Part shown: piece by piece, positions 6,828-22,131 of the stretch
How the letters are laid out: each line of letters opens with the position of its first letter
How positions within the stretch are numbered: the stretch's first letter is position 1
Source: Paracoccus suum
Lineage (GTDB): Bacteria; Pseudomonadota; Alphaproteobacteria; Rhodobacterales; Rhodobacteraceae
Direction of reading: 5' to 3'
DNA length: 32,000 nt
Assembly (NCBI RefSeq): GCF_003324675.1
Contig: NZ_CP030918.1
Coordinates: 2,430,001-2,462,000 of the forward strand
Position numbers and translations under genes: made by a program
The notes under the pieces: model-generated
Databases searched by the model: none
What the model was told of the DNA's origin: nothing
Seen by the model: only the letters and a program-made list of their open reading frames with translations

Positions 6828-9104
6828 ATGCTGAAGTTGCTGACATCAGCCGCCGGGCTGGCCATTTTCGCAACCGGGGCGCTGGCCAATGAAAGCGTAA
6901 TGGCCCTGACCAAGGACGACACCCAGTGGGCGTTGCAGACCAAGGACTACGCCAACACGCGCTATTCGACGCTGAAGCAGATCACCAAGGAAAACGTCGG
7001 TGACATGCGCGTGGCATGGAGCTTTTCGACGGGCGTGCTGCGCGGCCACGAAGGTGGACCGCTGGTCGTGGACGGCATCATGTATGTCCACACGCCGTTT
7101 CCGAACAACATCTTTGCGCTTGATCTGAACGACAACGGAAAGATCCTGTGGTCCTACAAGCCGCAGCAAAACCCCGAGACGATCGCGGTCATGTGCTGCG
7201 ATACCATCTATCGCGGCCTCGCCTATGCCGACGGCACGGTATTCCTGGCGCAGGCCGACACGACGCTGGTCGCGCTGGACGCAAAGTCGGGCGCGGTAAA
7301 ATGGTCGGTCAAGACCGGTGATCCGGCGATTGGCGAGACCAGCACCGCAACCGTGACCCCGGTCAAGGACAAGCTCCTGGTGGGGATCTCGGGCGGCGAA
7401 TATGGCGTGCGCGGTCGCATGACCGCCTACAACATCAGCGACGGCAGCGTCGCGTGGCAGGCTTGGTCCACCGGACCCGATGCCGATATGCTGGTCGATC
7501 CCGAAAAGACCATGGTGCTGGGCAAGCCGATTGGCGCCGACAGTTCGCTGAAGAGCTGGGAAGGCGATCAGTGGAAGATTGGCGGCGGCACCACCTGGGG
7601 CTGGACCTCGTATGACCCGGATCTGAACCTGGTCTATTACGGAACCGGCAACCCCTCGACCTGGAACCCGTCGCAGCGTCCGGGTGACAACAAGTGGTCG
7701 ATGACGATCATGGCCCGCGATGCCGACACCGGCATGGCGAAGTGGTTCTACCAGATGACGCCCCACGACGAGTGGGACTATGACGGCATCAACGAGATGA
7801 TCCTGACCGACCAGCAGTTCGACGGCAAGGATCGCAAGCTGCTCACGCACTTTGACCGGAACGGCTTTGGCTACACGCTCGACCGCGAAACGGGTGAGCT
7901 GTTGGTCGCTAAGAAGTACGACCCGGCCGTCAACTGGGCGACGGAAGTCGTCATGGACCCGTCGAGCGACCAGTATGGCCGCCCGCAGGTCGTGTCCAAA
8001 TACTCGACCGAGCAGAACGGCGAGGATACCAACTCTCAGGGTATCTGCCCGACCGCCCTCGGCAGCAAGGACCAGCAGCCGGCGGCCTACTCGCCCGAGA
8101 CGCAGCTGTTCTACGTGCCGACCAACCACGTCTGCATGGACTACGAGCCGTTCCGCGTCAGCTACACCGCCGGCCAGCCCTACATTGGGGCCACGCTGTC
8201 GATGTATCCCGCGCCCGGCAGCCATGGCGGGATGGGTAACTTCATCGCCTGGGACAACATCAAGGGCGAGATCAAGTGGACCATCCCCGAGACCTTCTCG
8301 GTCTGGTCCGGCGCCTTGGCGACCGCCGGCGGCGTGGTGTTTTACGGCACGCTCGAGGGCTATCTGAAGGCGATCGACGCCGAAACGGGCGAGGAGCTTT
8401 ACAGCTTCAAGACCCCGTCCGGGATCATCGGCAACGTGATGACCTACGAGTCCGGCGGCCAGCAGTATGTCGCCGTCCTGACGGGCGTCGGGGGCTGGGC
8501 GGGCATCGGTCTTGCGGCGGGTCTGACCGACCCGACTGCAGGTCTTGGCGCGGTTGGCGGCTATGCGTCGCTGTCGCAATACACCAATCTCGGCGGTCAG
8601 CTGACCGTGTTTGAAGTGCCGGGCACCGGCACGGGCGAGGCCAAGGTAGCCCAGGGCACCAAGCCGATCCCGGGTCCCGTTCCGATGGACAACAGCGGGA
8701 CCATGGCCCCGGCGCCAGCCCCGGCCGCGGCACCTGCCGCCCCGGCAGCGGACGGGGCAGCTCCCGCCGCTGATGCCGCACCGGCTGCGCCAGCAGCAGG
8801 TGCTGCGCCACCCGCAGCGCCAGCGGCGGACGCGGCGGCGCCGGCGGCCCCTGCGACCCCTGCCGCGGACGCTGCAGCGCCCGCGGCGGCAGCGCCCGCG
8901 GCTGGCACGGAGGCAGCGCCTGCCACCGACGCCAATGCCGAGGCGGGAGCCGCAACCGCTCAGCCCGGCACGGCCTCGAGCAGCGCGCAGGAGACCGGCA
9001 CCGTCTCGCCGAACGAGGCGCCGGCTGCCGCTCCGGCGGATGCCGCCGCTCCGGCTGCGGGCGCGGCGCCGGCACCTGCGCCCGCACCCGCGCCCTCCAA
9101 CTGA
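6828..9104 (+). CDS. xoxF: PQQ-dependent, lanthanide-type methanol/ethanol dehydrogenase XoxF with a C-terminal Ala/Pro-rich extension
   Basis: Signal peptide [22 protein letters not shown]. Vicinal Cys-Cys in VMCCD (7194-7199). DEWDYDG (DYDG = 7776-7787) carries the extra Asp diagnostic of lanthanide-dependent XoxF, where Ca-dependent MxaF has Ala. GGAGGG SD lies upstream. The canonical catalytic domain ends near residue 599 ([11 protein letters not shown], about 8624). Residues 600-758 form a low-complexity tail that runs to the TGA at 9102-9104. Confidence 0.9.
8703..9101 (+). repeat. low-complexity GCN/CCN imperfect tandem repeats encoding the Ala/Pro-rich XoxF tail
   Basis: Translation: [68 protein letters not shown]...[25 protein letters not shown]. 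By eye, synonymous codons (GCA/GCT, CCA/CCT) are more mixed here than in the catalytic part. Confidence 0.75.
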
Positions 9105-9192: not shown

Positions 9193-10017
9193 ATGACCCT
9201 GCGCGACATGCACGCCTGCCACGCGACCCAGAACAACTTCAGCCGGCCCGCCGGTCTTGGCCTGTCGCTGGCAGCGGCCTTGGCCCTCGCGGCCTCGCCA
9301 TTCCCGGCTGCGGCGCAGACCGCACCCGTTACGCCCGCCGCGCCCGCTGAAGCGACGCCGGCGCCTGCTCCCGCCGCTTCGTCTGACGCGATGCCGGCGC
9401 CTGCTGCTGCGCCCACTCCGGCAGCCCCAGCTGCTCCGGCCCCTGCCGCATCTCCGGCCGGCCAAGCTGCCGCACCCGCCGCCGCGGCCGCACCTGCGGC
9501 CGCCGCCCCGGCAGCAACCGCAGCGGCACCTGCCGAGCCGGTGCCTGAGGCAGCACCGACCGCGGCTGGCTCCGGCCCCGATACCACCGGCCCCACCGAG
9601 CAGAACAACGGCATCTGGTACACCGCCGAAGGCAATCCCACCTACAAGATCGCCGATGACGGCACGCTCGATTACGGCACCTTCGCCGGCTACATCCGCT
9701 ACACTGCCGAGTGCATGACCTGCCACGGCCCGGATGGAATGGGCTCGTCCTATGCCCCGCCGCTGAAGGACGTGGTCATGCGGATCACCTATTCCGACTT
9801 CACCGGCATCGTCGCTGGTGGCATGCAGGATGTCAGCGCTGCGCAAACCTTGGTGATGCCGTCGTTCGGCAACAATAACAACGTGATGTGCTACCTGGAC
9901 GGCATCTACGCCTATCTGCTTGCACGCGGTGAGGGCAAGGTCGACCGCGGTCGCCCGCCGAAGAAAGAACCGAAATCGGATGCCTTCAAGGCAGCCGAAG
10001 ACGAGTGCATGGGGTGA
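9193..10017 (+). CDS. xoxG: cytochrome c (c-553i / XoxG type), predicted electron acceptor of XoxF
   Basis: Signal peptide ...GLGLSLAAALALAASPFPAAA/QT. Single haem motif CMTCH (9712-9726) within YIRYTAECMTCHGPDGMGSSYAPPLKD. It sits directly after xoxF and before xoxJ. The start may alternatively be ATG 9208. Residues ~42-135 form an Ala/Pro-rich linker. Confidence 0.88.
   Translation: MTLRDMHACHATQNNFSRPAGLGLSLAAALALAASPFPAAAQTAPVTPAAPAEATPAPAPAASSDAMPAPAAAPTPAAPAAPAPAASPAGQAAAPAAAAAPAAAAPAATAAAPAEPVPEAAPTAAGSGPDTTGPTEQNNGIWYTAEGNPTYKIADDGTLDYGTFAGYIRYTAECMTCHGPDGMGSSYAPPLKDVVMRITYSDFTGIVAGGMQDVSAAQTLVMPSFGNNNNVMCYLDGIYAYLLARGEGKVDRGRPPKKEPKSDAFKAAEDECMG
9316..9597 (+). repeat. low-complexity region encoding the Ala/Pro-rich N-terminal linker of XoxG
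   Basis: Translation: [93 protein letters not shown]. The composition matches the XoxF tail 200-900 nt upstream. Confidence 0.75.
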
Positions 10018-10970
10018 TGCACATCGCCCGGACCATTGCGGCCGGCCTTACATTGGCGGTCATTCTGGCTGGCTCCGGATGGGCGCAAACCGCGCCCGGC
10101 AACGCCCCAGTCGTGGTGCCGGGCCCAGCGGCTGACGGGGCACCCCCGGAGGCACAGCAGCCGGGCGGCGCACCCATGCCCGGCGCGCCGTTCCCGGGCG
10201 CTGCGACGGCGCCGGCGGCGGAACTCGCTTCGCAAACATCCTTCCGGGTTTGTGCCGATCCGGCCAATGCGCCGATGTCGGTCAAGGACGGCAGCGGCTT
10301 CGAGAACCGCATTGCGGAACTGTTCGCGGCCAAGCTCGACCGGCCGCTGGAATACACCTGGTTCCCGCAGACGACCGGCTTCATCCGCAAGACCCTGCGC
10401 GCTTTCGCCTGCGATGTCGTCATCGGCTATGCCCAGGGCGACCAGCTGGTGCAGAACACCAACCATTACTACAGCTCGGCCTATGTGATCGTGACGCTGG
10501 CCGGGGGACCGCTCGACGGGGTCGACCGCATCAGCGATCCGCGCCTGCTGGGACACCGCATCGGGGTGACCGAGTCCTCGCCCCCGGTCAATCACATGTT
10601 GCACGCCGGGTTGCTGAAGACTGCAGCCTATTATCCACTGTTCGTCGATCGGCGCGTGCAGGACCCGGCCGGCGACATGCTGCGCGATCTGCACGCAGGC
10701 AAGATCGATGCCGCCATCCTCTGGGGGCCGATTGGCGGGCCGGCCGTCAAGGCCGATCCCAGCCTGACGATGGCGCCGCTGCTGCATGAGGTGGGCCAGC
10801 CCAAGTTGGTCTATCGCATCACCATGGGCGTCCGGCCGGCGGACCAGGCGTGGAAACGCCAGTTGAACAGCCTCATCCGCCGTAACCAGGCCGAGATCGA
10901 CGCAATCCTGCGCGATTCTGGCGTGCCACTGATTGATGACGAAGGCACCGCGCTCAAGCCTCCGGCATGA
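10017..10970 (+). CDS. xoxJ: XoxJ/MoxJ-type periplasmic binding protein (quinoprotein dehydrogenase-associated substrate-binding protein)
   Basis: ATG 10017 overlaps the xoxG stop (TGATG); ATG 10005 is an alternative. Signal peptide MHIARTIAAGLTLAVILAGSGWA/QT, then a Pro/Ala-rich linker, then FRVCADPANAPMSVKDGSGFENRIAELFA...GKIDAAILWGP, typical of MoxJ-like type 2 binding proteins. Confidence 0.85.
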   Translation: MHIARTIAAGLTLAVILAGSGWAQTAPGNAPVVVPGPAADGAPPEAQQPGGAPMPGAPFPGAATAPAAELASQTSFRVCADPANAPMSVKDGSGFENRIAELFAAKLDRPLEYTWFPQTTGFIRKTLRAFACDVVIGYAQGDQLVQNTNHYYSSAYVIVTLAGGPLDGVDRISDPRLLGHRIGVTESSPPVNHMLHAGLLKTAAYYPLFVDRRVQDPAGDMLRDLHAGKIDAAILWGPIGGPAVKADPSLTMAPLLHEVGQPKLVYRITMGVRPADQAWKRQLNSLIRRNQAEIDAILRDSGVPLIDDEGTALKPPA

Positions 10971-11503
10971 GACGCCTCCTTGCAACGGCGCTGGCCGCGC
11001 TTGCCCTCGCGATCCCCGCAGCAGCCGAGACGGTGCCAGAGCCGGACAGCTATCATGCTGCGCCCTATGAAGCGCCCGTACCGGAGACGCTGAGACGGGC
11101 AAACGTCGTCGACGCCGCCGGCGCGATGCGCCTGCGCGAGGCCGGGGCGGCCTTCATCGACGTGCTGCCGCAGACCCGCCGTCCCGAAGGCTTGCCGGCC
11201 GGGACTTTCTGGCGCGTACCGCCCCATGACAGCATCCCCGGTGCACTGTGGCTGCCCGACGCGGGGTTCGAGCGGCTGACGCCGACCGAGGAGGCGGCAC
11301 TGAGTGCCGGCCTTCAGCGCGCTACAGGTGGTGATCGGGACAAGCCGCTGGTCATTTTCTGCCGCCCGGACTGCTGGCTCAGCTGGAACGCCGCGCGACG
11401 GGCGGTCGCGCTTGGCTATAGCGCGGTCAACTGGTTTCCCGGTGGCACTGCCGCATGGGAGGCCGCGGGCGGCACGCTCGAGCCGGTCGCCCCATCGGAG
11501 TGA
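10967..11503 (+). CDS. rhodanese-like protein with a CXXCW motif (PQQ-dependent catabolism-associated CXXCW motif protein)
   Basis: ATGA overlap with xoxJ. Signal peptide MRRLLATALAALALAIPAAA/ET. The motif PLVIFCRPDCWLSWNAARRAVALGY has CRPDCW at 11360-11377. The rhodanese-like ending is NWFPGGTAAWEAAGG. Confidence 0.85.
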   Translation: MRRLLATALAALALAIPAAAETVPEPDSYHAAPYEAPVPETLRRANVVDAAGAMRLREAGAAFIDVLPQTRRPEGLPAGTFWRVPPHDSIPGALWLPDAGFERLTPTEEAALSAGLQRATGGDRDKPLVIFCRPDCWLSWNAARRAVALGYSAVNWFPGGTAAWEAAGGTLEPVAPSE

Positions 11504-11586
11504 TCGCTTAGGACCAAGGTCTTAGCTCACAAAGCTGGCAAGCTTGCCGGCCATCGGTCTAACATCAAGGACGGGGAGGGGTGACG

Positions 11587-12927
11587 ATGGGAAAGGGGAC
11601 CGGCGCAGCACTTTTGGCAATCCATGCCATGACGTTGACCGGTGCCGCGATCCCCGCCAGTGCGCCCGTCAGCCCGCCCTCGACTGCCCAACCCGCGAGC
11701 CCTCTGGCCGCTCCTGTGGCTCCTGCGGCAGCCTCTCAGCCCGCCAACCCTGCCGGGGCGCCCGCAGCCGCAGCTTCGTCAAACGCGAAGCTGCCCACTG
11801 CGGGCGAAATACGCGCCGGGGTGCTTAGGGTCGACACGCCAACGCTGCCGCCGGCATCGCGGCTCGATCTGCCTCCACCCGACCTCGGACTGGTTGGGGC
11901 AGAGCTTGCCACCCGCGACAACGCGACCACGGGCGGTTTCCTGGGTCAGACCTTCACAACCGAAACCGCGACCGCGACCCCGCAGGATGCGGTCGCGAAG
12001 TTGGAACGCCTGATCGACGGCGGCAGCGCGTTCATCGTGGTCATGGCGGACGACGCACAGACGCTGGCGCTCGCCGATGCGGCGCGCGCCAAGGCTGGGG
12101 ACAAGGTGTTGATCCTGAACGCGCTGGCCGAGGGGGACGACCTGCGCGGGGACGACTGCCGCGCGAACGTCATCCATGTCGCCGCCTCGCGCGCGATGAA
12201 ATCCGATGCGCTGGCGCAGTTCCTGATGTGGAAGCGATGGGGCAAGTGGTACCTGGTGGAAGGCAGCCACCCGCGGGACAAAGCCCTCGCCGCCGCCTAT
12301 GCCCGCGCCGCGACCAAGTTCGGCGCCAAGCTGGTCGAAACGCGCGAATTTACCGACACCGGCGGGGGCCGCCGGACCGATACCGGCTATGTCCAGATCC
12401 AGCAGCAGATGCCGGTTTTTACGCAGCGCGCACCCGGCCATGACGTACTGGTCGCGGCGGACGAGGCGGGCACCTTCGCGCCCTATCTGCCCTACCAGAC
12501 GTGGGACGCGCGCCCGGTCGTCGGTTCGGCCGGGCTGACGCCGGTCACCTGGCACCCCGCGGCAGAGGCTTGGGGCGGGACGCAACTGCAAACCCGGTTC
12601 GAGGCGCTGGCCCACCGGCCGATGCGCGAGGCGGATTACCAGGTGTGGCTGGCGCTGCGCCTGCTGGGCGAGGCCGCAAGCCGCGCGCCCAGCACGGATT
12701 TCGCGGCGCTGCGCGATCGCCTGTTGGGCCCGCAGTTCGAGGTCGGCGCCTTCAAGGGTCAAAAGCTGACGATCCGTGACTGGGACCATCAACTGCGCCA
12801 GCCGATCCTGTTGGCGACGCCCGCCATCGTTGCCTCGGTCTCGCCGCAGGACCAGTATCTGCACCAGACCAGTGCGCTCGACACGCTCGGGATCGACCGC
12901 CCCGAATCCACCTGCAAGCTGAAGTGA
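11587..12927 (+). CDS. periplasmic substrate-binding protein, type 1 (LivK-like), of the PQQ-dehydrogenase-associated ABC system
   Basis: GGAGG ends 7 nt before ATG 11587; the track start is GTG 11581. The N-terminal hydrophobic region is followed by an Ala/Pro/Ser-rich linker (PASAPVSPPSTAQPASPLAAPVAPAAASQPANPAGAPAAAAS). The binding-protein body follows (AFIVVMADDAQTLALADAARAKAGDKVLILNALAEGDDLRGDDC...WKRWGKWYLVEGSHPRDKALAAAY). Confidence 0.8.
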   Translation: MGKGTGAALLAIHAMTLTGAAIPASAPVSPPSTAQPASPLAAPVAPAAASQPANPAGAPAAAASSNAKLPTAGEIRAGVLRVDTPTLPPASRLDLPPPDLGLVGAELATRDNATTGGFLGQTFTTETATATPQDAVAKLERLIDGGSAFIVVMADDAQTLALADAARAKAGDKVLILNALAEGDDLRGDDCRANVIHVAASRAMKSDALAQFLMWKRWGKWYLVEGSHPRDKALAAAYARAATKFGAKLVETREFTDTGGGRRTDTGYVQIQQQMPVFTQRAPGHDVLVAADEAGTFAPYLPYQTWDARPVVGSAGLTPVTWHPAAEAWGGTQLQTRFEALAHRPMREADYQVWLALRLLGEAASRAPSTDFAALRDRLLGPQFEVGAFKGQKLTIRDWDHQLRQPILLATPAIVASVSPQDQYLHQTSALDTLGIDRPESTCKLK

Positions 12928-12935
12928 GGGTCCCG

Positions 12936-13916
12936 ATGCGACATCCCGCCGTCCGCCCCCTGGTGCTCAGCGCGCTGCTGTTAGTCCCCGTGCCCGCACT
13001 GGCGGCCAAGGTCTATGTCACCAACGAAAAGGGCAACAGCGTCACCGTGCTGGACGCCACCACGCTGGAAGTCGTCGGCACCCATCCGGTCGGTGCGCGG
13101 CCGCGTGGCATCACCATCGCCCCGGACGGGAGCGAGCTGTATGTCTGCGTCTCGGACGAGGATACGGTCAAGGTCTACGACCCGAAAACGATGGCCGAGT
13201 TGCACCGCCTGCCGTCCGGCCCGGACCCCGAACTGTTCGTGCTGCACCCCTCGGGCAACCCGCTCTACATCGCCAACGAGGATGACAATCTGGTCACCGT
13301 GGTCGACACCAAGACCCATCAGGTCCTGGCCGAGATCCCGGTCGGGGTCGAGCCGGAGGGGATGGGGATCTCGCCCGATGGCAAGGTGGTGGTCAACACC
13401 TCCGAGACGACCAACATGGCCCATTTCATCGACACGACGACCCACGAGATCACCGCCAACGTTCTGGTGGACCAACGCCCGCGCTTTGCCCAGTTCAGCG
13501 ATGACGGCAGCCGGCTTTACGTCTCGTCCGAGATCGGCGGCACGGTCAGCGTCATCGATCCGGCGACCCAGACCGTCACCGGCACCATAAAGTTCGAGAT
13601 CCAGGGCGTGCTGCCCGAGGCGATCCAGCCGGTCGGGGTCAAGGTCACGCATGACGGCAAGACGATCTTCGTCGCCCTCGGGCCGGCGAACCGGGTTGCG
13701 GTGGTCAATGCCGACACGCTGGAGGTCGAGGATTACCTTTTGACCGGGCAGCGGGTCTGGCAACTGGCCTTCAATGCCGATCAGAGCCGGCTGTTCACCA
13801 CCAATGGCAACAGCAACGACGTTTCGATCATCGATGTCCCGGCGCGCAAGGTGATCCAATCGGTGCAGGTCGGTCAGCAGCCTTGGGGCGTTGTTGTCGG
13901 ACCTGACAAACCATGA
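12936..13916 (+). CDS. YVTN-family beta-propeller protein (PQQ-dependent catabolism-associated beta-propeller protein)
   Basis: GTGAGGG acts as SD 5 nt before ATG 12936; GTG 12924, overlapping the previous stop, is an alternative start. Signal peptide MRHPAVRPLVLSALLLVPVPALA/AK. Repeated blades follow: VYVTNEKGNSVTVLD, LYVCVSDEDTVKVYD, LYIANEDDNLVTVVD, LYVSSEIGGTVSVID, LFTTNGNSNDVSIID. Confidence 0.85.
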   Translation: MRHPAVRPLVLSALLLVPVPALAAKVYVTNEKGNSVTVLDATTLEVVGTHPVGARPRGITIAPDGSELYVCVSDEDTVKVYDPKTMAELHRLPSGPDPELFVLHPSGNPLYIANEDDNLVTVVDTKTHQVLAEIPVGVEPEGMGISPDGKVVVNTSETTNMAHFIDTTTHEITANVLVDQRPRFAQFSDDGSRLYVSSEIGGTVSVIDPATQTVTGTIKFEIQGVLPEAIQPVGVKVTHDGKTIFVALGPANRVAVVNADTLEVEDYLLTGQRVWQLAFNADQSRLFTTNGNSNDVSIIDVPARKVIQSVQVGQQPWGVVVGPDKP

Positions 13917-14497
13917 GGACGAGCATGCAGATTCAATTCGGTCTGGCGCTGCTAGCGCTGTTAGCGAGCGGCTGGGCCGTGGCGGCGCAGGACGCAGCCA
14001 AGGCACCCGTTGATACCGCTCCGAATGGCGCGGTGGCCCAAGCGGAGGCGCCTGACGCCGATGACACTGACGCCGACAGCGGCGAAGCGCCTGCCGCCGC
14101 CGCCAGCGTTGCCGGTCCCGGGCATCACGACTACGGGCCCTCCGGCATCATGAGCCGCGCCAACCGCGAAGATCTGGCGCCCCTAACGCTCGCCTCCGGC
14201 AAGCCCGTCGCCGGCGCCCCGTACAGGTTGAAGTCGGGGGGCTACTACCGGATCGAGGTCTCCGCCGATGGCTCGGCCGAACTGGCCCTTTCCGGCGGCG
14301 ATTTCTTCCGTGCCATCTGGGTCAACGAGGTGGTCATCAACGATATCGAGATCAGGCCCATGGGTCTGCACAGCCTGGAGTTCGACGACGCCGGCACGGC
14401 CACCATCAGCTTCGTCGCAATCCGGCCCGGCAGCTACGCCCTGTCCGTCCCCGGATCCAGCGGCGAGGGCCAGAAAGCTACGTTCGTGATCGAATGA
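13913..14497 (+). CDS. secreted hypothetical protein (acidic linker plus beta-rich C-terminal domain)
   Basis: ATGA overlaps at both ends (13913-13916 and 14494-14497) embed it in the operon. Signal peptide MRTSMQIQFGLALLALLASGWAVAA/QD. An acidic stretch DADDTDADSGE lies at 14054-14086. The C-terminal ~110 aa has an alternating beta pattern (YYRIEVSADGSAELALSGGDFFRAIWVNEVVINDIEIRP...TATISFVAIRPGSYALSV...ATFVIE). It has no Cys. I do not recognise a family. Confidence 0.65.
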   Translation: MRTSMQIQFGLALLALLASGWAVAAQDAAKAPVDTAPNGAVAQAEAPDADDTDADSGEAPAAAASVAGPGHHDYGPSGIMSRANREDLAPLTLASGKPVAGAPYRLKSGGYYRIEVSADGSAELALSGGDFFRAIWVNEVVINDIEIRPMGLHSLEFDDAGTATISFVAIRPGSYALSVPGSSGEGQKATFVIE

Positions 14498-15243
14498 CCC
14501 AAGACGTCGCCCTTCGTCCACCGGCGCTGCTGGTCGAGGGTGTCAGCCACGCCTTTGGTCTGACCCGAGCCCTGGACGGGGTGTCGCTTCAGGTGATGGC
14601 GGGGCAGTTCGTGGCCCTGCTGGGCATCAACGGGGCCGGCAAATCGACGCTGATCAATGTCGCAACCCGCCTCTACGACAGCGGCGCAGGACGGGTCGCG
14701 ATTGCCGGCCATGACCTGCGCCGCGCTCCCTCTGCCGCGCTCGCGCGTCTGGGCGTGGTGTTCCAGAGCCGCGCCCTCGATGCGGACCTGACCGTGGCGC
14801 AGAACCTGCACTACCACGCGGCGCTGCATGGGATCGGCCGGGCGGAGGCGCGGGGGCGGATCGCCGAGGTCCTGGCCCTGGTAGATCTGCAGGACAAAGC
14901 CCGCGCCCGCGTCGCCACCTTGTCGGGCGGGCAGGTCCGCCGCGCCGAGATCGCCCGCGCCCTGATCCACCGGCCCGAGGTCATGATCCTCGACGAGCCG
15001 ACCACCGGCCTCGATGTCCGCTCTCGGGCCGAGGTTCTCGCCCTCACCCAGCGCCTGACGCGGACCGGCGCGGTCGGCGTCTTGTGGGCCACCCACCTGC
15101 TGGCCGAGGTGACCGAGGCTGACGCCATCATCGTCCTGCATCAGGGGCGCGTACTGTGGTCCGGGCCGCCACAGGATTTGGCGCGGGAGGGCGATCTGAC
15201 CGCCGCCTTCCTCAGCCTGACCGGCGCGCAGGCGGCGGCATGA
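14494..15243 (+). CDS. ABC transporter ATP-binding protein (PedB/LutE-like)
   Basis: Walker A GINGAGKST, signature LSGGQVRR, Walker B VMILDEPTTGLD, H-loop WATHLL. ATGA overlaps occur at both ends. Confidence 0.92.
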   Translation: MTQDVALRPPALLVEGVSHAFGLTRALDGVSLQVMAGQFVALLGINGAGKSTLINVATRLYDSGAGRVAIAGHDLRRAPSAALARLGVVFQSRALDADLTVAQNLHYHAALHGIGRAEARGRIAEVLALVDLQDKARARVATLSGGQVRRAEIARALIHRPEVMILDEPTTGLDVRSRAEVLALTQRLTRTGAVGVLWATHLLAEVTEADAIIVLHQGRVLWSGPPQDLAREGDLTAAFLSLTGAQAAA

Positions 15244-16130
15244 ACGCGATTTCGAACGCGGAGGCGCAGTCCGTACCAGCCCCGGCCGACGCGGCGGTGG
15301 GTCCCGGCAATGCCTCCGCGCCCCCCCGGCTGCCACCCCGCGCCTACGCCATTGCCTTCGCCGGCATCGCCCGGCGCGAGGCACTGCGCTTTGTCAACCA
15401 GCGGGGCCGCTTCCTGGCCGCACTCGTGCGGCCGCTCGTCTGGTTGTTCATCTTTGCCGCAGGATTCCGCGCAGTGCTCGGGCTGTCCATCACGCCCCCC
15501 TACAACACCTATGTCCTTTACGAAGTCTATGTGACGCCCGGCCTCGTTGCGATGATCCAACTATTCAACGGCATGCAATCCTCGCTCTCGATGGTCTATG
15601 ACCGCGAGACGGGGGCGATGCGCACCTTGCTGGTCAGCCCGCTGCCTCGCTGGTTCCTGCTGCTTTCCAAGCTCGTCGCCGGGGTGTTCGTTTCGATCAT
15701 CCAAGCGGCCGTCTTTCTGGCGATTGCCTGGCTCTGGGATATCCGCCCGCCGCTGCTCGGCTATCTCGCGGTCGTGCCCGCACTGGTGCTGTCAGGCCTG
15801 ATGCTGGGCGCGCTTGGGCTGCTGCTCAGCTCGGCCATCCGCCAGCTCGAGAATTTTGCCGGGGTCATGAACTTCGTGATCTTCCCGATGTTCTTCGCCT
15901 CCAGCGCGCTCTATCCGCTCTGGCGCATGAACGAGGGCAGCCCGCTGCTGCGCGACATCTGTGCGCTGAACCCCTTTACCTACGCGGTCGAACTGATCCG
16001 CTTTGCCCTCTACCTTCAGGTGGACTGGCTGTCGCTGGGCGTCGTCATGGGCTGCCTGGTGCTGTTCTTTGGCCTCGCCGTCAGGCTGTACGATCCCGCG
16101 CGGGGCGGCCCGCGCCGAAAGGAGGGGTGA
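15240..16130 (+). CDS. ABC-2 type transporter permease (PedC/LutF-like)
   Basis: ATG 15240 overlaps the ATPase stop (ATGA); the track start 15156 lies inside the ATPase gene. The 296-aa protein has about six hydrophobic helices (FLAALVRPLVWLFIFAAGF, VTPGLVAMIQLFNGM, LLLSKLVAGVFVSIIQAAVFLAIAWLW, YLAVVPALVLSGLMLGALGLLLSSAI, VMNFVIFPMFFASSALYPL, LSLGVVMGCLVLFFGLAV). Confidence 0.85.
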   Translation: MNAISNAEAQSVPAPADAAVGPGNASAPPRLPPRAYAIAFAGIARREALRFVNQRGRFLAALVRPLVWLFIFAAGFRAVLGLSITPPYNTYVLYEVYVTPGLVAMIQLFNGMQSSLSMVYDRETGAMRTLLVSPLPRWFLLLSKLVAGVFVSIIQAAVFLAIAWLWDIRPPLLGYLAVVPALVLSGLMLGALGLLLSSAIRQLENFAGVMNFVIFPMFFASSALYPLWRMNEGSPLLRDICALNPFTYAVELIRFALYLQVDWLSLGVVMGCLVLFFGLAVRLYDPARGGPRRKEG

Positions 16131-16960
16131 TGCGATTTCTTGTGACAGCTTCGGGCGCGGCCTTGGGCCTAATGCTTGCGGCCCCGGCTATGGCGGCCGA
16201 GGCGACCGCCGAATGGCCCTGCGTACAGCCGCGCCAGCCGCATCTGTCGATCGGCCAGATGTGGACCGGCCCGGCTCCGACACCGCAGGCCGAGGCGCTC
16301 GCCAAGAATGACCAGACGATCGACACGCTGGCCGAGACTCTCGCCCTGCGGCGCGTGCCGATCGATTCCGCGCGCGAGCTGATCGACGCCTTCGCTGTGG
16401 AGGCGACCCCGGAGCAGCGCACTGCACTGATGCTCGCGACCCTGGCGCGGGTTGACCGACAGCGGACCGCGATCCTTGATGGCATCACGCGCTATGGCGA
16501 GGGGCAGGCCGACCTTGCACGCCACGTCGCAGAGCGTCGCGCGACCCTTGACGCGATGGCGCAGGAAGCCAAGCCCGATTTCGACAAGATCGATGCCGAG
16601 GAAGAAAAGCTCGACTGGGATCAGCGCATCTTTGAAGAGCGGCGCCAGATGCTGAGCGCGGTCTGCGAAAGCCCGGTGCTGATGGAGCAGCGCTTGTTCG
16701 AGATCGCACGCCTCATCGCCGCCGCGCCGGAAGGTGCGGGTGGGTCAGACGTGGCGGGGACCGAAGAGACGGGCGCAAAACCCGACAAGGTAAACGCGGC
16801 GGGAAACGACACGCCTGTTGCGGGCGAAGCGAAACCGGCGGGGGCCGACGCGGCGCCAAGCCCGCCAGGGACGACGGCGGACGGGACGGAAACGCCAGGC
16901 GTGGACGCCTCGGGGGCTGGTGCGACCGGGCCGGGAATTACTCCCACTCAAGCTCCTTGA
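16130..16960 (+). CDS. secreted hypothetical protein (helical, two Cys, disordered C-terminal tail)
   Basis: GTGATG at 16127-16132 overlaps the permease stop, so the start is GTG 16127 or ATG 16130. Signal peptide MRFLVTASGAALGLMLAAPAMA/AE. The body is predicted helical with Cys in EWPCVQP and SAVCESP. The last ~70 aa are Gly/Ala/Pro/Thr-rich. I do not recognise a family. Confidence 0.6.
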   Translation: MRFLVTASGAALGLMLAAPAMAAEATAEWPCVQPRQPHLSIGQMWTGPAPTPQAEALAKNDQTIDTLAETLALRRVPIDSARELIDAFAVEATPEQRTALMLATLARVDRQRTAILDGITRYGEGQADLARHVAERRATLDAMAQEAKPDFDKIDAEEEKLDWDQRIFEERRQMLSAVCESPVLMEQRLFEIARLIAAAPEGAGGSDVAGTEETGAKPDKVNAAGNDTPVAGEAKPAGADAAPSPPGTTADGTETPGVDASGAGATGPGITPTQAP

Positions 16961-17987
16961 AGGCGCTTGCCGCATCGCGCGCGGTGGTGGCGTCGAAATC
17001 TCCAAGGTCGGCCGCCAAGGGACGCATGGCCTCGACCACCTGCGGGATCGCCTCGCTCAGCGATCGTCCCTCCGCAATCGCCGCGCGGACGGTCTGCGCC
17101 AGTGCTTCAAGGTAGCTGCGCGTCTCGGCACTGCCTTCGACCCAACCGGCAGCAACCGGACCGTGGCCAGGTACGACATGGTCGGGCGGTGGTTCTGGGG
17201 CCTTTCCGAGCCACGCCAGCCAGCCGATGATCGAGCCGTCCAGAACCGGTGTCGTGCCGCGAAACAGCAGATCGCCGGTAAACAGCGTGCGGCTGGCGCC
17301 GTGCCACGCCGTCAGATCCGCATCGCTGTGCCCCGGCGGCTGGGGGGTCAGATCCAAGCTGTCGCCGCCGAAACCCACTGCCTCGCCCTCAGCTAGCAGT
17401 TTGTCCGGTGCGATGAAGGCGCTGCCATGCCAGGCTGCCTCGCCCAGGGTCTCGCGGTAACCGCTTTCCCACGTCGCGCGCCGCGCCGCGAGCGAGGCTG
17501 GCAGGGCGGCATTCGCGATGACCTGCGCGCCGGCCTCGTGGAACAACTCGGCCCCCAGGCTGTGGTCGGGATGGGCATGGGTCAGGACGACCGTGGTGAC
17601 GGGCAGGGGCGTCAGGCGGCGAATGGCGGCCAGCAGCGCCTCGGCCTCGGCCCGCGTGCCGCCGGGGTCGATGACGGCAACGCCGCGCGGTCCCGTCACG
17701 ACGCCGCTGTTGGCAATTTCCCCATGATTGTCGGCACTGGCAGTGCCCGGCGCGCCCAAATGGACCCACACGCCTGACGCGACCGGCGCCAGCGTCAGCG
17801 TGGGCAACGTGTCGGTGGGAGCGCACCGCTGCCCCTCACCGCGCATCGAATGTGCCGCCAGCCACGGAGAGGCAACAGCGGTCGCGCCAGCTTCGCAGGC
17901 GGCGATTTGCGCATTATCACCCTGCGGCAGCCAGCGTTCGGCGCAGGTGCCGCCCACGGTGCAGGCCATGACGAGCAGATGAAACAT
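16938..17987 (-). CDS. metallo-beta-lactamase fold hydrolase (quinoprotein relay system zinc metallohydrolase type)
   Basis: The 349-aa protein has the HxHxDH motif in VVLTHAHPDHSLG and later HSDAD and PGHGP motifs. The N-terminal ~55 aa contain four Cys. GAGGGGG lies just upstream of ATG 17987. It is divergent from pqqA. Its 3' end overlaps the convergent gene 16130..16960 by 23 bp. Confidence 0.85.
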   Translation of the reverse strand: MFHLLVMACTVGGTCAERWLPQGDNAQIAACEAGATAVASPWLAAHSMRGEGQRCAPTDTLPTLTLAPVASGVWVHLGAPGTASADNHGEIANSGVVTGPRGVAVIDPGGTRAEAEALLAAIRRLTPLPVTTVVLTHAHPDHSLGAELFHEAGAQVIANAALPASLAARRATWESGYRETLGEAAWHGSAFIAPDKLLAEGEAVGFGGDSLDLTPQPPGHSDADLTAWHGASRTLFTGDLLFRGTTPVLDGSIIGWLAWLGKAPEPPPDHVVPGHGPVAAGWVEGSAETRSYLEALAQTVRAAIAEGRSLSEAIPQVVEAMRPLAADLGDFDATTARDAASAFKELEWE

Positions 17988-18123
17988 GCCCCCTCATATC
18001 ACGGGCGCGCCGGCGCTGCCGCCTCTCACGGCTCAAGTGCGACCTTCGACGGATGGACAGGCCCGCGCCGTGGCCTAAGCTGGACGGGCGCCAACAGTGG
18101 CGAGTGCAAGGGGAAGATGACCG

Positions 18124-18216
18124 ATGGCCTGGAAAAAACCCGTTTTGAAGGAAATCGCCTGCGGCATGGAGATCAACATGTACGCCCCGGCCGAGGACGA
18201 GCCCGTCCTTTTCTGA
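18124..18216 (+). CDS. pqqA: PQQ precursor peptide PqqA
   Basis: Below the size cut-off of the ORF track. ATG GCC TGG AAA AAA CCC GTT TTG AAG GAA ATC GCC TGC GGC ATG GAG ATC AAC ATG TAC GCC CCG GCC GAG GAC GAG CCC GTC CTT TTC TGA translates to MAWKKPVLKEIACGMEINMYAPAEDEPVLF. It has the conserved E-X3-Y (EINMY) that is cross-linked to form PQQ. AAGGGGAAG lies 7 nt upstream. pqqB follows directly. Confidence 0.9.
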   Translation: MAWKKPVLKEIACGMEINMYAPAEDEPVLF

Positions 18217-18223
18217 TGCAGTC

Positions 18224-18254
18224 CCGGTCGCGGCGCGCCAAGTCCCGCGGCCGG
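18224..18254 (+). promoter_or_regulatory. stem-loop between pqqA and pqqB
   Basis: CCGGTCGCGG (18224-18233) pairs with CCGCGGCCGG (18245-18254) to give 10 bp, including one G-U pair, around an 11-nt loop. No U-tract follows. Confidence 0.4.
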
Positions 18255-18271
18255 AATCAGGATGGCTCAAC

Positions 18272-19162
18272 ATGCGCCTGATCGTTCTGGGGGCCGGCGC
18301 GGGCGGCGGCCTGCCGCAGTGGAACTGCGGTTGCCGTAATTGCGAGGGGGCGCGGTCGGGGCGGATCGCGCCGATGACGCAGTCCTCGATTGCTGTCAGC
18401 GCGGACGGCGCCACGTGGGCGGTGATCAACGCCTCGCCGGACATCCGCGCGCAGATCGCCGCAACGCCGGCGCTGCATCCTAAAACGTTGCGCGGCAGCT
18501 CGATTGCCGCCGTGCTGCTGACCAATGGCGATCTGGATCACGTGGCCGGCCTGCTGACCCTGCGCGAGGGCCAGCCATTCCGTTTGCTGGCCACCGCGGC
18601 GATTCATGATGTGCTGGCTGGAAACCCGATGCTGAACGCCCTTGATCCGAGCATCGTCCTGCGCGAGGTGATCGCCGTGGAAACGCCGTTCGACCTGCTG
18701 CCCGGCCTGACCGCGCGGCTGATGCCGGTGCCGGGCAAGGTGCCGCTGTATCTCGAAGCGGGACAGGTGGTGACCGACGCCATGGGCGAGGAGACCGTGG
18801 CGGTCGAGCTGACCTCGGGCGGCAAGCGGGCGGTCTATGCCCCGGCTTGCGCGGCCATGCCGCCGATGCTGCGCGCGCGGCTTGCAGGCGCCGATCTGCT
18901 GCTGCTCGACGGGACGGTCTGGACCGATGACGAGATGCCGCGCGCCGGCCTCTCGACCAAGACGGGTCGGCGCATGGGGCATATGGCTGTCTCCGGCGCG
19001 GACGGCAGCATGGCTGCGCTGGACGGAACAGAAATTGGCGACAAGATCCTGATCCATATCAATAATTCGAATCCGCTGGTCGATCCCGACAGTTCCGCCC
19101 GCGCGACCGCCGCGGCCGCCGGCTGGCGCGTTGCGCATGACGGAATGGAGGTCACATGCTGA
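18272..19162 (+). CDS. pqqB: PQQ biosynthesis protein B (MBL fold)
   Basis: The 296-aa protein has MRLIVLGAGAGGGLPQWNCGCRNC, LLTNGDLDHVAGLLTLREG and LIHINNSNPL. Confidence 0.93.
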   Translation: MRLIVLGAGAGGGLPQWNCGCRNCEGARSGRIAPMTQSSIAVSADGATWAVINASPDIRAQIAATPALHPKTLRGSSIAAVLLTNGDLDHVAGLLTLREGQPFRLLATAAIHDVLAGNPMLNALDPSIVLREVIAVETPFDLLPGLTARLMPVPGKVPLYLEAGQVVTDAMGEETVAVELTSGGKRAVYAPACAAMPPMLRARLAGADLLLLDGTVWTDDEMPRAGLSTKTGRRMGHMAVSGADGSMAALDGTEIGDKILIHINNSNPLVDPDSSARATAAAAGWRVAHDGMEVTC

Positions 19163-19902
19163 GCCGCCCACCCCTCGACCGCGAGAGTTTCGAGGCACGG
19201 CTACGGGCCATCGGCGCGGCACGCTACCACGACCGACACCCGTTCCATGCGCTGCTCCACGGCGGGCAGGCGAGTGCCGACCAGGTCCGCGCCTGGGTGA
19301 TCAACCGCTGGTATTACCAATCGCGCATCCCGATGAAGGACGCGGCTTTCATGTCGCGCGTGACCGACCCGGCCTTGCGCCGCGCCTGGCGCTCGCGGAT
19401 CGAGGATCATGACGGTGGTCTGGACGAGGGCGGCGGCCTGCGCCGTTGGCTGCGATTGGCCGAGGCGGTGGGCCTCGACCCGGGCTACGTCGCCAGCGGT
19501 GCGGGCGTGATGCCGGCGACGCGTTTCGCAGTCGATGCCTATGTCCGCTTCGTGCGCGACATGCCCTTGCTGGACGCCGTTGCCTCGTCTCTGACCGAGA
19601 TGTTCGCCCCGAAAATTCATGCCGAACGTATCGAAGGGCTTCTGCAACATTATGATTTCGCGGATGAAACGGCGCTCAGCTATTTTCGCACCCGGCTTGC
19701 CGAGGCACCGCGCGACGTTGCCTTCGGGCTGCGCCATGTCCTCGATCACGCCGATACGGCGGAAAAGCAGGACGCGGCGGCCGATGCGCTGACCTTCAAG
19801 ACCGACGTGCTGTGGGCGCAACTGGACGCCCTTTGGTCGGGCTATGTCGAGCCCGGCCGCATCCCGCCGGGCGCCTGGCAACCGGGCGAGGGATTGCGAT
19901 GA
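19156..19902 (+). CDS. pqqC: pyrroloquinoline-quinone synthase
   Basis: The 248-aa protein has RYHDRHPFHALLHGG...WVINRWYYQSRIPMKDAAFMSR...RRWL. It overlaps the pqqB end by 7 nt. Confidence 0.95.
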   Translation: MLSRPPLDRESFEARLRAIGAARYHDRHPFHALLHGGQASADQVRAWVINRWYYQSRIPMKDAAFMSRVTDPALRRAWRSRIEDHDGGLDEGGGLRRWLRLAEAVGLDPGYVASGAGVMPATRFAVDAYVRFVRDMPLLDAVASSLTEMFAPKIHAERIEGLLQHYDFADETALSYFRTRLAEAPRDVAFGLRHVLDHADTAEKQDAAADALTFKTDVLWAQLDALWSGYVEPGRIPPGAWQPGEGLR

Positions 19903-20213
19903 CGGACGCGCAAACCCTCAAGCTCGACCCACATGCCGTGCCCTGGCTGCCGCGCGGTGTGCGCCTTGCCGAGGACAAGGTGCGGGGCATGCGCGTTCTG
20001 CTCGGTCCTGAGCGGGCGATGCAACTGGATGAGGTGGGGGACGCGATCCTGACCTCGCTCGACGGACGGCGCAGCGTGGCCCAGATCGCCGGCGATCTGG
20101 GCGCCCGCTTTGGCGCGCCGCCGGCCGAGGTTCTGCCCGACGTGTCCGAGTTTCTGTCCGGCCTGATCGAGCGCCGGTTGGTGTTCACAACCCCGGACAA
20201 ACCATGGACGTGA
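19899..20213 (+). CDS. pqqD: PQQ biosynthesis peptide chaperone PqqD
   Basis: ATGA overlap with pqqC (19899-19902). The track start 19812 lies inside pqqC. The 104-aa protein has LPRGVRLAEDKVRGMRVLLGPERAMQLDEVGDAILTSLDGRRSVAQIAGDL. Confidence 0.9.
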   Translation: MTDAQTLKLDPHAVPWLPRGVRLAEDKVRGMRVLLGPERAMQLDEVGDAILTSLDGRRSVAQIAGDLGARFGAPPAEVLPDVSEFLSGLIERRLVFTTPDKPWT

Positions 20214-21355
20214 TCTCAACCCAGCCGTGCGACATCGACGGCAACCGGGTTGCCGTCCGGCCGCCCATGGCGATGCTGGCCGAGATCACGCACCGCTGCC
20301 CGCTGGCCTGCCCCTATTGCTCGAATCCGTTGCAACTATCGGCAGCAAGTACCGAAATCAACGCGAATACCTGGATGCGCGTATTTCGCGAAGCGGCGGC
20401 GATTGGCGTTCTGCAGGTGCATATCTCTGGCGGCGAGCCAGCCTCGCGCCGCGACCTGGAGGAGATTTGCGCCGGCGCGCGCGAAGCTGGCCTCTACGTG
20501 AACCTCATCACCTCGGGCGTCGGCCTGACCGAGGCGCGGGTGCGGGCGCTGGATGCGGCCGGGGTAGATCATGTCCAACTGTCTGTGCAGGGTGTGAACG
20601 CCGCCATGTCGGACTGGATCGGCGGCTATCGCGGCGGCTTTGCGCGCAAGATGCAGGCGGCCGAATGGATCGTCGCGGCCGGGCTGCCGCTGACGCTGAA
20701 TGCCGTGGTGCATCGCCAGAACATCGACGACCTGCCGCAGGCCATCGCCATGGCAGAGGCGCTGGGCGCGCGACGGATCGAGGTTGCGACCGTCCAGTTC
20801 CACGGCTGGGCCGAGCTGAACCGGCCCATGCTGATGCCGACCGAGGCGCAGGCCCGCACCGCTCGGGAAGTGGTCGATGCCGCGCGCGTAAGGCTGCGCG
20901 GCCGAATGGTGGTCGATTACGTCCCGGCCGATCACCACGCGCGCTATCCCAAGGCCTGCATGGGCGGCTGGGGCTCGACCGGGCTGAACGTGACGCCCGA
21001 CGGCACCGTCCTGCCGTGCCATGCCGCGCAGACCATCCCGCACCTGAGTTTTCCCAATGTTCGCGAGGCCTCGCTGGCCGAGATCTGGGAGCAATCGCCT
21101 GCCTTCAACGCCTATCGCGGCACCGGCTGGATGGCCGAGCCCTGCGCCTCCTGCCCGCGCAAGGAAGTCGATTTTGGCGGCTGCCGCTGCCAGGCGATGC
21201 GGCTTGCCGGGGATGCGCGGGCGACCGACCCGGTGTGCATCCTATCGCCCCTCCACGCCGAACTCGCGGCGAGGGTCGCCGCCGAGGTCGCGGCGCCAGA
21301 GGTATCGGGATTCACGTGGCGGCGGATGCCGCGCCCCGTTCGGGAGGATGCCTGA
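20204..21355 (+). CDS. pqqE: PqqA peptide cyclase, radical SAM/SPASM enzyme
   Basis: CX3CX2C motif CPLACPYC (20297-20320). C-terminal SPASM Cys cluster (CASCPRKEVDFGGCRCQA...DPVC). It overlaps pqqD by 10 nt. Confidence 0.95.
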   Translation: MDVISTQPCDIDGNRVAVRPPMAMLAEITHRCPLACPYCSNPLQLSAASTEINANTWMRVFREAAAIGVLQVHISGGEPASRRDLEEICAGAREAGLYVNLITSGVGLTEARVRALDAAGVDHVQLSVQGVNAAMSDWIGGYRGGFARKMQAAEWIVAAGLPLTLNAVVHRQNIDDLPQAIAMAEALGARRIEVATVQFHGWAELNRPMLMPTEAQARTAREVVDAARVRLRGRMVVDYVPADHHARYPKACMGGWGSTGLNVTPDGTVLPCHAAQTIPHLSFPNVREASLAEIWEQSPAFNAYRGTGWMAEPCASCPRKEVDFGGCRCQAMRLAGDARATDPVCILSPLHAELAARVAAEVAAPEVSGFTWRRMPRPVREDA

Positions 21356-22131
21356 TGCGCCTTGCCCTGAGCCTTTGCCTGCTGCTTGCCCAGCCCGCGG
21401 TGGCGGATGTGCAGAATCCCTTGCAACCCTCTGAAGCATGGCCGGATATTCGCGACACCCTGATCGCGGACGCGCCTGACCCACCGATTGATCCGGGCCA
21501 GTTGTTGCTGGACGCCCCGGCCCGTGCGGATGATCCGGCGGTGGTGCCGATCCACCTGACCCAGCCGCCGGGCGCTGCCCCGATCGAGCGGCTGGTGCTG
21601 GTGATAGACAACAACCCGGCACCGGTTGCCGCCGACTTTACCTTCGGCACCGCGCTGATGCCGCTGGACATGGAAGTCCGGGTCCGCGTCAACGCCTATT
21701 CCGATGTCCGGGCCGTCGCATGGCTGAAGGATGGACGGCAGGTCATGGCGGGGCGGTTCGTCAAGGCCTCGGGCGGGTGTGCGGCCCCGGCGTCGAAGGA
21801 CCCGAAGGCGGCTGCGGCCGAGATGGGGCAGATGCGGCTGAAGGCAGCGCCAGCCGACGACGGGCGCACCATGGCGACGCTGATGATTCGCCATCCGATG
21901 AGCAGCGGCTTGCAGCGCGATCAGGTCACGCTGCTCGATATTCCCGCCATGTTCATCGACCGGATGGAAGTCCGGCAGGGTGACGCCCCCTGGCTGACGA
22001 TGAGCGCGGGGATCTCGGTCGCCGAGGACCCGGTGTTCCGATTTGCGGTGACGCCCGGCACGGGCCCGGTCACTGTCCATGCCGAGGATACCGACGGCCA
22101 TCAGTTCGACCAGGCGCTCACCCTGAACTGA
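21355..22131 (+). CDS. fused SoxY/SoxZ-like carrier protein (quinoprotein dehydrogenase-associated SoxYZ-like carrier)
   Basis: This is the C-terminal 258 aa of track ORF 20227..22131, whose upstream part is an out-of-frame overlap with pqqE. ATG 21355 overlaps the pqqE stop (TGATG). Signal peptide MRLALSLCLLLAQPAVA/DV. KASGGC places the GGC at 21772-21780 (Cys142) at the end of the SoxY-like half. A SoxZ-like half follows (TMATLMIRHPMSSGLQRDQVT...VEDPVFRFAV). Confidence 0.8.
   Translation: MRLALSLCLLLAQPAVADVQNPLQPSEAWPDIRDTLIADAPDPPIDPGQLLLDAPARADDPAVVPIHLTQPPGAAPIERLVLVIDNNPAPVAADFTFGTALMPLDMEVRVRVNAYSDVRAVAWLKDGRQVMAGRFVKASGGCAAPASKDPKAAAAEMGQMRLKAAPADDGRTMATLMIRHPMSSGLQRDQVTLLDIPAMFIDRMEVRQGDAPWLTMSAGISVAEDPVFRFAVTPGTGPVTVHAEDTDGHQFDQALTLN

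Follow-up and report, generated by a model that had tools for sequence, protein, structure and literature searches.

Why should a locus for methanol oxidation carry proteins that resemble the cysteine carriers of sulfur oxidation? The question was raised by a stretch of 32 000 nucleotides of the Paracoccus suum genome (contig NZ_CP030918.1, positions 2 430 001 to 2 462 000; hereafter the window), in which xoxF, encoding a pyrroloquinoline quinone (PQQ) dehydrogenase, and the pqq genes stand together with three further genes. These encode a fused SoxY-SoxZ-like carrier, a SoxH-related zinc metallohydrolase and a secreted rhodanese-like CXXCW protein (hereafter the trio). Coordinates are window positions, and genes lie on the plus strand unless the minus strand is indicated. 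A preliminary description of the window had proposed a periplasmic thiol or persulfide relay dedicated to quinoprotein dehydrogenases. This interpretation was partly supported: the family and fold assignments, the conservation of the Cys residues and the linkage with xoxF held, and on these counts the refuting outcomes named beforehand were not observed. The explanation that we tentatively favour, at somewhat under an even chance, is that the trio may form a Sox-like Cys-carrier cycle supporting lanthanide-type PQQ alcohol/methanol dehydrogenases (XoxF, PedH).

The carrier gene (21355–22131) encodes a protein of 258 amino acids with a signal-peptide-like N-terminus in its translation, and its ATG shares one base with the stop codon of pqqE (TGATG). 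The whole protein was compared with profile hidden Markov models (HMMs) and scored 247.3 bits against TIGR04557 (curated cut-off 140). Pfam placed SoxY at residues 48–142 and SoxZ at residues 163–254 of this single polypeptide. The SoxY half was matched to SoxY of Paracoccus pantotrophus (2ox5) by sequence (E 3e-8) and, using an AlphaFold2 (AF2) model, by fold (2ox5_Y; template modelling (TM) score 0.81, root mean square deviation 2.7 Å). The model has two beta-sandwich domains, with a dip in the predicted local distance difference test (pLDDT) score at residues 141–150; the Cys142 loop between the two domains has a pLDDT of 63. Cys142 (21778–21780) lies in the sequence VKASGGCAAP and is the last residue of KASGGC. 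It was kept in 125 of the 126 carrier representatives (clustered at ≤50% identity), with the surrounding consensus [FY]VKA[SA]GGC[SA]AP. The extent and length of the gene, the TGATG overlap, KASGGC with its Cys142 and the SoxY-SoxZ fusion had all been read from the window beforehand and were confirmed by translation and HMMs.

The carrier was compared with the canonical Sox carrier SoxYZ, which acts with SoxB and SoxH (P. pantotrophus; 2ox5). The SoxY and SoxZ folds, the GGC Cys arm and a SoxH-type partner hydrolase are common to both. In canonical SoxY, however, the Cys is found in a C-terminal GGCGG and SoxZ is a separate protein. In the window SoxY and SoxZ are fused, so that the carrier Cys is internal (GGCAAP), with a linker and then the SoxZ-like domain after it. 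Scores against the canonical SoxY and SoxZ equivalogs TIGR04488 and TIGR04490 were both below the cut-offs (50.5 vs 125 and 50.4 vs 76, respectively), and no soxAXBCD genes are present near the carrier set. A second SoxY-SoxZ fusion paralogue was observed upstream of the CXXCW gene in many Rhodobacterales (L022, L025, L027, L052, L053 and others). It has 28–38% identity to the window carrier, its arm (FVKTSGQGACSAP, of GQGAC type) replaces GGC, and it adjoins a YVTN propeller paralogue; the window contains neither of these paralogues.

The hydrolase gene (16938–17987, minus strand) is divergent from pqqA, with 136 bp to the pqqA ATG at 18124, and encodes a protein of 349 amino acids. It scored 286.1 bits against TIGR04559 (‘quinoprotein relay system zinc metallohydrolase 2’; cut-off 280) and 93 bits against Pfam Lactamase_B. 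The metal ligands H137, H139, D141, H142, H220, D239 and H275 (HxHxDH/H/D/H), which include the THAHPDH motif, were invariant among 76 sequences, and the binuclear metal site is intact. Each of the four N-terminal Cys (Cys9, Cys15, Cys31 and Cys55) was present in 93–99% of the same sequences. The gene position, THAHPDH, the four N-terminal Cys and the 136-bp interval were as previously described. The N-termini were then compared by inspection. Members of the TIGR04559 family of 305–318 amino acids start with Sec-type signal peptides, whereas the P. suum hydrolase and its Rhodobacterales orthologues have a conserved M-F-[EH] start (M-F-H in P. suum) and no recognisable signal peptide. In the Rhodobacterales hydrolases, a 60-residue region containing the four Cys (residues 1–60; 17805–17987, minus strand) occupies the signal-peptide position. 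This region alone gave no match in Pfam. The literature searched yielded nothing usable on SoxH biochemistry or on PDB 8D2Z, the solved structure most closely related to the hydrolase. The hydrolase gene and the lutG-like gene on its other side are convergent, and their tails overlap by 23 bp (16938–16960).

The CXXCW gene (10967–11503) overlaps the stop codon of xoxJ with its start (ATGA) and encodes a secreted protein of 178 amino acids. The motif CRPDCW corresponds to C132-R-P-D-C136-W137, and C132, C136 and W137 were present in 35/35 CXXCW sequences compared. The protein scored 196.1 bits against TIGR03865 (cut-off 128) and 25.7 against Pfam Rhodanese (gathering score 22.2). C132 was aligned with the active-site-loop Cys of the rhodanese 2hhg, in a weak alignment (E 0.03). 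The position, the motif and the coupling to xoxJ given in the preliminary description were correct, and the profile HMMs placed all three proteins of the trio over curated cut-offs (TIGR04557, TIGR03865 and, only just, TIGR04559). The presumed client of the trio is encoded by xoxF (6828–9104), which scored 747 bits against TIGR03075, a family of PQQ methanol/ethanol dehydrogenases. The vicinal Cys-Cys pair had been located correctly at 7194–7199. The XoxF translation also carries WDYDG, which we take to be the lanthanide-type motif.

The association of these genes is not new: the window set is an ordinary P. suum member of a widespread and already named gene set. NCBIfam describes a ‘quinoprotein relay’ set comprising the carrier (TIGR04557), the zinc metallohydrolases 1 and 2 (TIGR04558 and TIGR04559) and the PQQ-associated CXXCW protein (TIGR03865), with PP_2677, PP_2678 and PP_2666 of Pseudomonas putida as examples. 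As in the window, that set is found in a neighbourhood with a PQQ dehydrogenase, a cytochrome c, an XoxJ/PedG-type binding protein and a PedA1A2BC-type transporter. The window carrier, hydrolase and protein of 277 amino acids (16127–16960) each have 100% identity to NCBI proteins of P. suum, and in the NCBI annotation the carrier and hydrolase already bear the quinoprotein-relay names. Two clades of SoxY-SoxZ fusions that retain the arm Cys and stand beside a PQQ dehydrogenase gene were described in 2024 (PMC11237559), clade S2 with a PQQ alcohol dehydrogenase and soxH and clade S4 with xoxF and a rhodanese gene. The fusion clades were judged unlikely to act in sulfur metabolism, and protection of methanol dehydrogenase from thiosulfate, or support of this enzyme, was offered as speculation. 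In its pairing with a SoxH-like gene, the window carrier resembles S2. A 2026 review of the ped cluster (PMC12997753, section 15) grouped PP_2666, PP_2677 and PP_2678 as a trio that is conserved and associated with lanthanide-type enzymes. For its role, the review suggested that disulfides are formed, that the cofactor is stabilised or that PQQ is shielded against sulfur nucleophiles, and it named META1p1703-1705 as the homologues in Methylorubrum extorquens AM1. The two papers thus describe the association seen in the window and offer hypotheses like those of the preliminary description.

Conservation of the gene order was assessed in other genomes. One genome per GTDB species was scanned using an alignment of 14 sequences as the query, and 80 loci were obtained. 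Most are from Rhodobacterales, and the 80 loci are therefore not independent samples; the others include Rhizobium, Agrobacterium, Aureimonas, Acuticoccus, Geminicoccaceae and Methylobacterium. The loci were mapped with the window proteins. The hydrolase gene was found beside the carrier gene in 75 of the 77 loci with enough flanking sequence to be informative. For xoxF and the CXXCW gene, counts were made on the 36 non-Paracoccus loci that extend 9 kb or more upstream: xoxF was within 10 kb in 33 of them, and the CXXCW gene likewise in 33. In the window, xoxF is about 12 kb upstream of the carrier gene. The co-occurrence of the set with xoxF is far beyond chance, and the genomic linkage with a PQQ dehydrogenase foreseen in the preliminary description was thus observed. 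Independent support came from Bradyrhizobium zhanjiangense (L085) and the contig L087, which hold the same set, including xoxF, in a different order. In Methylobacterium oryzisoli (L079), the trio flanks xoxFGJ and lies near pqqE. At the Bradyrhizobium locus a protein of 130 amino acids with EF-hands, lanmodulin-like by its Pfam matches, is encoded beside the gene set (L085, 18339–18731), together with pqqA and a PQQ dehydrogenase of 554 amino acids.

In the usual layout, the hydrolase and carrier genes are direct divergent neighbours, a gene for a protein of 277 amino acids is convergent with the hydrolase gene, and the three genes adjoin flhA-fghA-xoxF-xoxG-xoxJ-CXXCW. Divergent adjacency of the hydrolase and carrier genes was seen in 57 loci. 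The pqqABCDE genes lie between them in 15 loci, all of them from Paracoccus. The carrier gene had been described as a sixth cistron of pqqABCDE. Its TGATG overlap with pqqE stands, but the arrangement is lineage-specific and not an ancestral link with PQQ synthesis, because the pqq genes intervene only in Paracoccus.

The DNA between the CXXCW gene and the hydrolase gene was also analysed. The xoxF and pqq genes had been pictured as wrapped in a set of Cys proteins; the trio is indeed present, but most of the wrapping DNA (11581–16960) belongs to an uptake system of the PedA1A2BC/LutABEFG type. It contains genes for an ATP-binding cassette (ABC) importer substrate-binding protein of PedA1/LutA type (11581–12927; TIGR03863, 460 bits, cut-off 414), a YVTN beta-propeller protein of PedA2/LutB type (12924–13916; TIGR03866, 513 bits), a secreted protein of 194 amino acids (13913–14497), an ABC ATPase of PedB/LutE type (14494–15243; TIGR03864, 309 bits, cut-off 302), an ABC-2 permease of PedC/LutF type (15240–16130; TIGR03861, 394 bits) and the protein of 277 amino acids (16127–16960), which is secreted. 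The four Ped-type components are all over the NCBIfam cut-offs, and by homology the region 11581–16130 is predicted to encode a lanthanide importer of the PedA1A2BC/LutABEF type. PedA1A2BC of P. putida (PMC6839425) and LutABEF of Methylorubrum extorquens (PMC7391723) are lanthanide importers without which lanthanide-dependent growth fails; the function of the window substrate-binding protein is assigned by homology to them. The order lutA, lutB, hypothetical gene, lutE, lutF, lutG of 11581–16960 is that of the Lut cluster of M. extorquens AM1, with the same likeness to PedA1A2BC of P. putida KT2440. The window differs from the Lut cluster in having neither a TonB-dependent receptor gene (LutH) nor a lanmodulin gene, and a single hypothetical gene between the propeller and ATPase genes. 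The product of this gene, the 194-residue protein, gave no match in Pfam or NCBIfam. It has 33% identity (E 2e-16) to the hypothetical protein whose gene separates lutB from lutE in lut clusters of Methylobacterium type (L084, 415–765). One protein of that between-propeller-and-ATPase type was called cupredoxin-like in the paper on strain PA1.

The 277-residue protein (p277) matched no family in Pfam or NCBIfam and was identified through published primers. The reverse complement of the AM1 lutF deletion primer encodes QSVSYVCE, which resembles the invariant YVCExP of the p277 family, and the 23-mer of this primer retrieved four metagenome contigs. On the longest, the gene between the permease gene and the TonB-dependent receptor gene contains KVTTLGY, exactly the peptide encoded by one lutG primer, and the peptide of a second lutG primer with one substitution (DKVSELKD for DKVSEFKD). 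p277 has 34–37% identity to the genes in the LutG position of the four contigs, with E values from 1e-27 (longest contig) down to 1e-31, and WPC and YVCExP are common to all. On this sequence evidence, p277 is assigned as a LutG homologue. Two Cys are invariant among 52 LutG/p277 sequences, in WPC32 and in C180-E-x-P. The AF2 model is all-helical (pLDDT 92), and when it was compared with the PDB by Foldseek, the matches were limited to generic helical hairpins and BAR domains (best E 0.08), with no functional lead. The gene adjoins the hydrolase gene in 29 of the 36 non-Paracoccus loci. Deletion of lutG in M. extorquens AM1 reduced lanthanum (La)-dependent growth on methanol from 0.16 to 0.03 per hour and could be complemented (PMC7391723). 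The Cys-protein set had been counted as three; LutG/p277 is a fourth conserved Cys protein that had been overlooked.

In AM1, orf6 and orf7 are located next to pqqE and are also required for La-dependent growth on methanol (PMC7391723). Their identity with the carrier or the hydrolase was considered and rejected: the primers correspond to a different pair of small secreted proteins in M. oryzisoli (L079). An orf7 deletion primer (supplement of PMC7391723; three mismatches) and the peptides of the orf6 primers were mapped downstream of pqqE in this locus, where the homologous genes lie at 11815–12180 (minus strand) and at about 12161–12850 (minus strand). Neither homologue matched Pfam or NCBIfam. 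Orf6 is a secreted protein of about 120 amino acids with four invariant Cys. Homologues of orf6 and orf7 are present in 65 and 62 of the 80 loci, respectively, and in 48 of 79 loci they are convergent to the carrier gene and no more than 700 bp downstream of it. In other Paracoccus they are 4–8 kb from the carrier gene; in the window, a search for both found none. The conserved neighbourhood is thus larger than the trio of the preliminary description, since orf6 and orf7 homologues recur beside the carrier gene, and three of its members (LutG, Orf6 and Orf7) have lanthanide-linked phenotypes. P. suum differs from the NCBIfam set in three respects: the pqq operon, as in other Paracoccus, separates the hydrolase and carrier genes, the hydrolase has the four-Cys N-terminal region and not a signal peptide, and orf6 and orf7 are not beside the carrier gene.

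For the trio we infer the following catalytic steps, cargo, target and hydrolase compartment. The SoxY-SoxZ fusion would hold a covalent sulfur-linked adduct (a persulfide, a thiosulfonate or a mixed disulfide) on Cys142 in its flexible GGC loop. The CXXCW rhodanese-like protein would load Cys142 or would resolve the adduct by redox chemistry, and the SoxH-like binuclear zinc hydrolase would take the adduct off and restore the free thiol. By maturation, protection or repair, this cycle would keep the lanthanide-PQQ enzyme active, and it would act beside LutG and the neighbouring lanthanide importer with which LutG is partnered. Lanthanide-linked synteny, like the phenotypes of the neighbouring genes, points to support of an enzyme of the XoxF/PedH type over energy-yielding sulfur oxidation, which is probably not the purpose of the set. 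The joint presence of the trio and PedH in P. putida, and the lack of both in P. aeruginosa (PMC12997753), is a further link with lanthanides, and for the hydrolase step there is the reported release of sulfate from SoxY by SoxH in Sulfurimonas CVO (cited in PMC11237559).

Several points weigh against such a cycle. Lanthanide ions favour oxygen ligands, and a link between thiols and a lanthanide enzyme is thus without explanation. The assignment of the hydrolase to TIGR04559 has a narrow margin, 6 bits over the cut-off. The relay had been described as periplasmic, but a fully periplasmic cycle is not established because the hydrolase has no recognisable signal peptide. As the preliminary description had stated, no biochemical characterisation of the three proteins was found in the literature searched. 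Random barcode transposon sequencing in P. putida gave minimal phenotypes for the trio, though rare earths were not supplied (PMC12997753). Transposon selection in AM1 gave xoxFGJ, orf6, orf7 and lut genes and no identifiable gene of the trio, in a selection that was non-saturating and with AM1 locus tags that were not mapped (PMC7391723).

The proposed cycle may also be part of a larger assembly, although we consider this unlikely. The trio, LutG with its two invariant Cys, Orf6 with its four and Orf7 would then be one periplasmic machine for the maturation or repair of lanthanide-PQQ dehydrogenases, the XoxF counterpart of MxaACKL, which serves the calcium enzyme. Its chemistry would depend on an intermediate bound covalently to the internal arm Cys of the fusion, and the four-Cys region that replaces the signal peptide in the Rhodobacterales hydrolases would be an unusual device for targeting or docking.

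Among the alternatives, the one that best survives is that the trio takes part in lanthanide acquisition or trafficking as an extension of the Lut/Ped system; the hydrolase could, for example, process an imported chelate, with the Cys mainly engaged in structural periplasmic disulfides. We judge this, too, to be unlikely. In its favour, LutG/p277 remains linked to the hydrolase and carrier genes in loci where the ABC genes have another location, and it follows the permease gene in the window and in the Methylobacterium-type contigs. The La-dependent phenotypes of lutG, orf6 and orf7 and the lanmodulin-like EF-hand protein of the Bradyrhizobium locus also fit trafficking. In the same sense, the trio and PedA1A2BC are both present in P. 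putida, which also has PedH, and P. aeruginosa, which lacks PedH and PedA1A2BC, has no trio (PMC12997753). A near-invariant single Cys on a SoxY-type arm and a Cys at the rhodanese catalytic position nevertheless point to catalysis. Thiols are, by established chemistry, poor ligands of lanthanides, and SoxH-type hydrolases have no known role in the processing of chelates.

Oxidation or detoxification of sulfur compounds was considered next. An XoxF-type enzyme would act here as a ThdT-like thiol dehydrotransferase and put sulfur from tetrathionate or thiosulfate on the carrier Cys, and the SoxH-like hydrolase would free sulfate. Each half has a parallel: ThdT of Advenella kashmirensis, an XoxF homologue, is described as coupling tetrathionate with glutathione (Pyne et al. 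2018, as summarised in bioRxiv 10.1101/683490), and SoxH releases sulfate from SoxY in Sulfurimonas CVO, according to the citation in PMC11237559. The contig L086 (3–2766) provides a sulfur-metabolism context for a carrier-hydrolase pair, with a SoxYZ-like gene (incomplete at the contig end), a close hydrolase relative (42% identity) and then a gene for an FCSD-type flavoprotein. Against this, Paracoccus thiocyanatus with an inactivated xoxF oxidised thiosulfate and tetrathionate as the wild type does (bioRxiv 10.1101/683490), the clades of SoxYZ fusions include many bacteria that do not oxidise thiosulfate (PMC11237559), and the synteny is with genes for methanol and formaldehyde oxidation and for lanthanide uptake, not with soxAXBCD. 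This function is quite improbable for the trio.

Mere co-location or co-regulation, with a function unrelated to the dehydrogenase, was given slightly less weight still. The trio itself has no reported phenotype, and operons can gather unrelated genes (PMC11237559), but the linkage holds in Rhodobacterales, Hyphomicrobiales (Bradyrhizobium, Methylobacterium, Rhizobium and Aureimonas), Pseudomonas and gammaproteobacterial symbionts, although gene order and strand have been rearranged. Least probable of all is the speculation that the carrier Cys traps formaldehyde, the aldehyde product, as a hemithioacetal that is oxidised to a thioester; the metallo-beta-lactamase-fold hydrolase would cleave this thioester as glyoxalase II does, and the glutathione formaldehyde pathway would thus have a periplasmic equivalent bound to protein: gfa, flhA and fghA flank the set in the window and in most Rhodobacterales loci and the hydrolase has a weak match to the hydroxyacylglutathione hydrolase model TIGR03413 (E 1e-6), but SoxH-related and class B beta-lactamase models fit far better, the CXXCW protein is left with no role and no precedent was found.

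The glutathione-dependent formaldehyde oxidation genes gfa, flhA and fghA lie 5′ of xoxF, as seen from the gene order. Downstream of xoxF are xoxG (9193–10017), for a c-type cytochrome related to methanol metabolism (TIGR03874, 198 bits, cut-off 162), and a gene for an XoxJ-like periplasmic binding protein (10005–10970; TIGR03871, 285 bits, cut-off 212). pqqA (18124–18216) was identified from its translation (MAWKKPVLKEIACGMEINMYAPAEDEPVLF) and is followed by pqqB, pqqC, pqqD and pqqE (18272–21355), which were over the cut-offs of TIGR02108, TIGR02111, TIGR03859 and TIGR02109, respectively. The housekeeping genes ribE, rpsD, hisC and tyrA come after the carrier gene on the same strand. A scan for promoters and terminators between 16800 and 22400 gave nothing over the shuffled expectation. 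The conserved core of the P. suum XoxF extends to about 8600 and is followed by an Ala/Pro-rich C-terminal tail of about 165 amino acids (8600–9104). This tail was not found in 34 orthologues, in which the protein stops about eight residues past the conserved core. Ala/Pro-rich segments were also observed in XoxG (9280–9590), XoxJ (10100–10230), the ABC binding protein (11650–11800) and LutG/p277 (16740–16960), with only weak tandem repeats beneath them.

The question of how lanthanide-dependent PQQ dehydrogenases are matured and maintained, in which the trio are plausible candidate players, predates the window: the set has been named in NCBIfam and discussed in two papers. What the comparison adds is that LutG, Orf6 and Orf7 are tied into the neighbourhood of the carrier, the hydrolase and the CXXCW protein, that Paracoccus alone has the pqq genes between those for the hydrolase and the carrier, and that the hydrolase of this lineage has no recognisable signal peptide. 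Phenotype tests of the set need lanthanides to be present, ideally together with sulfur-nucleophile stress.

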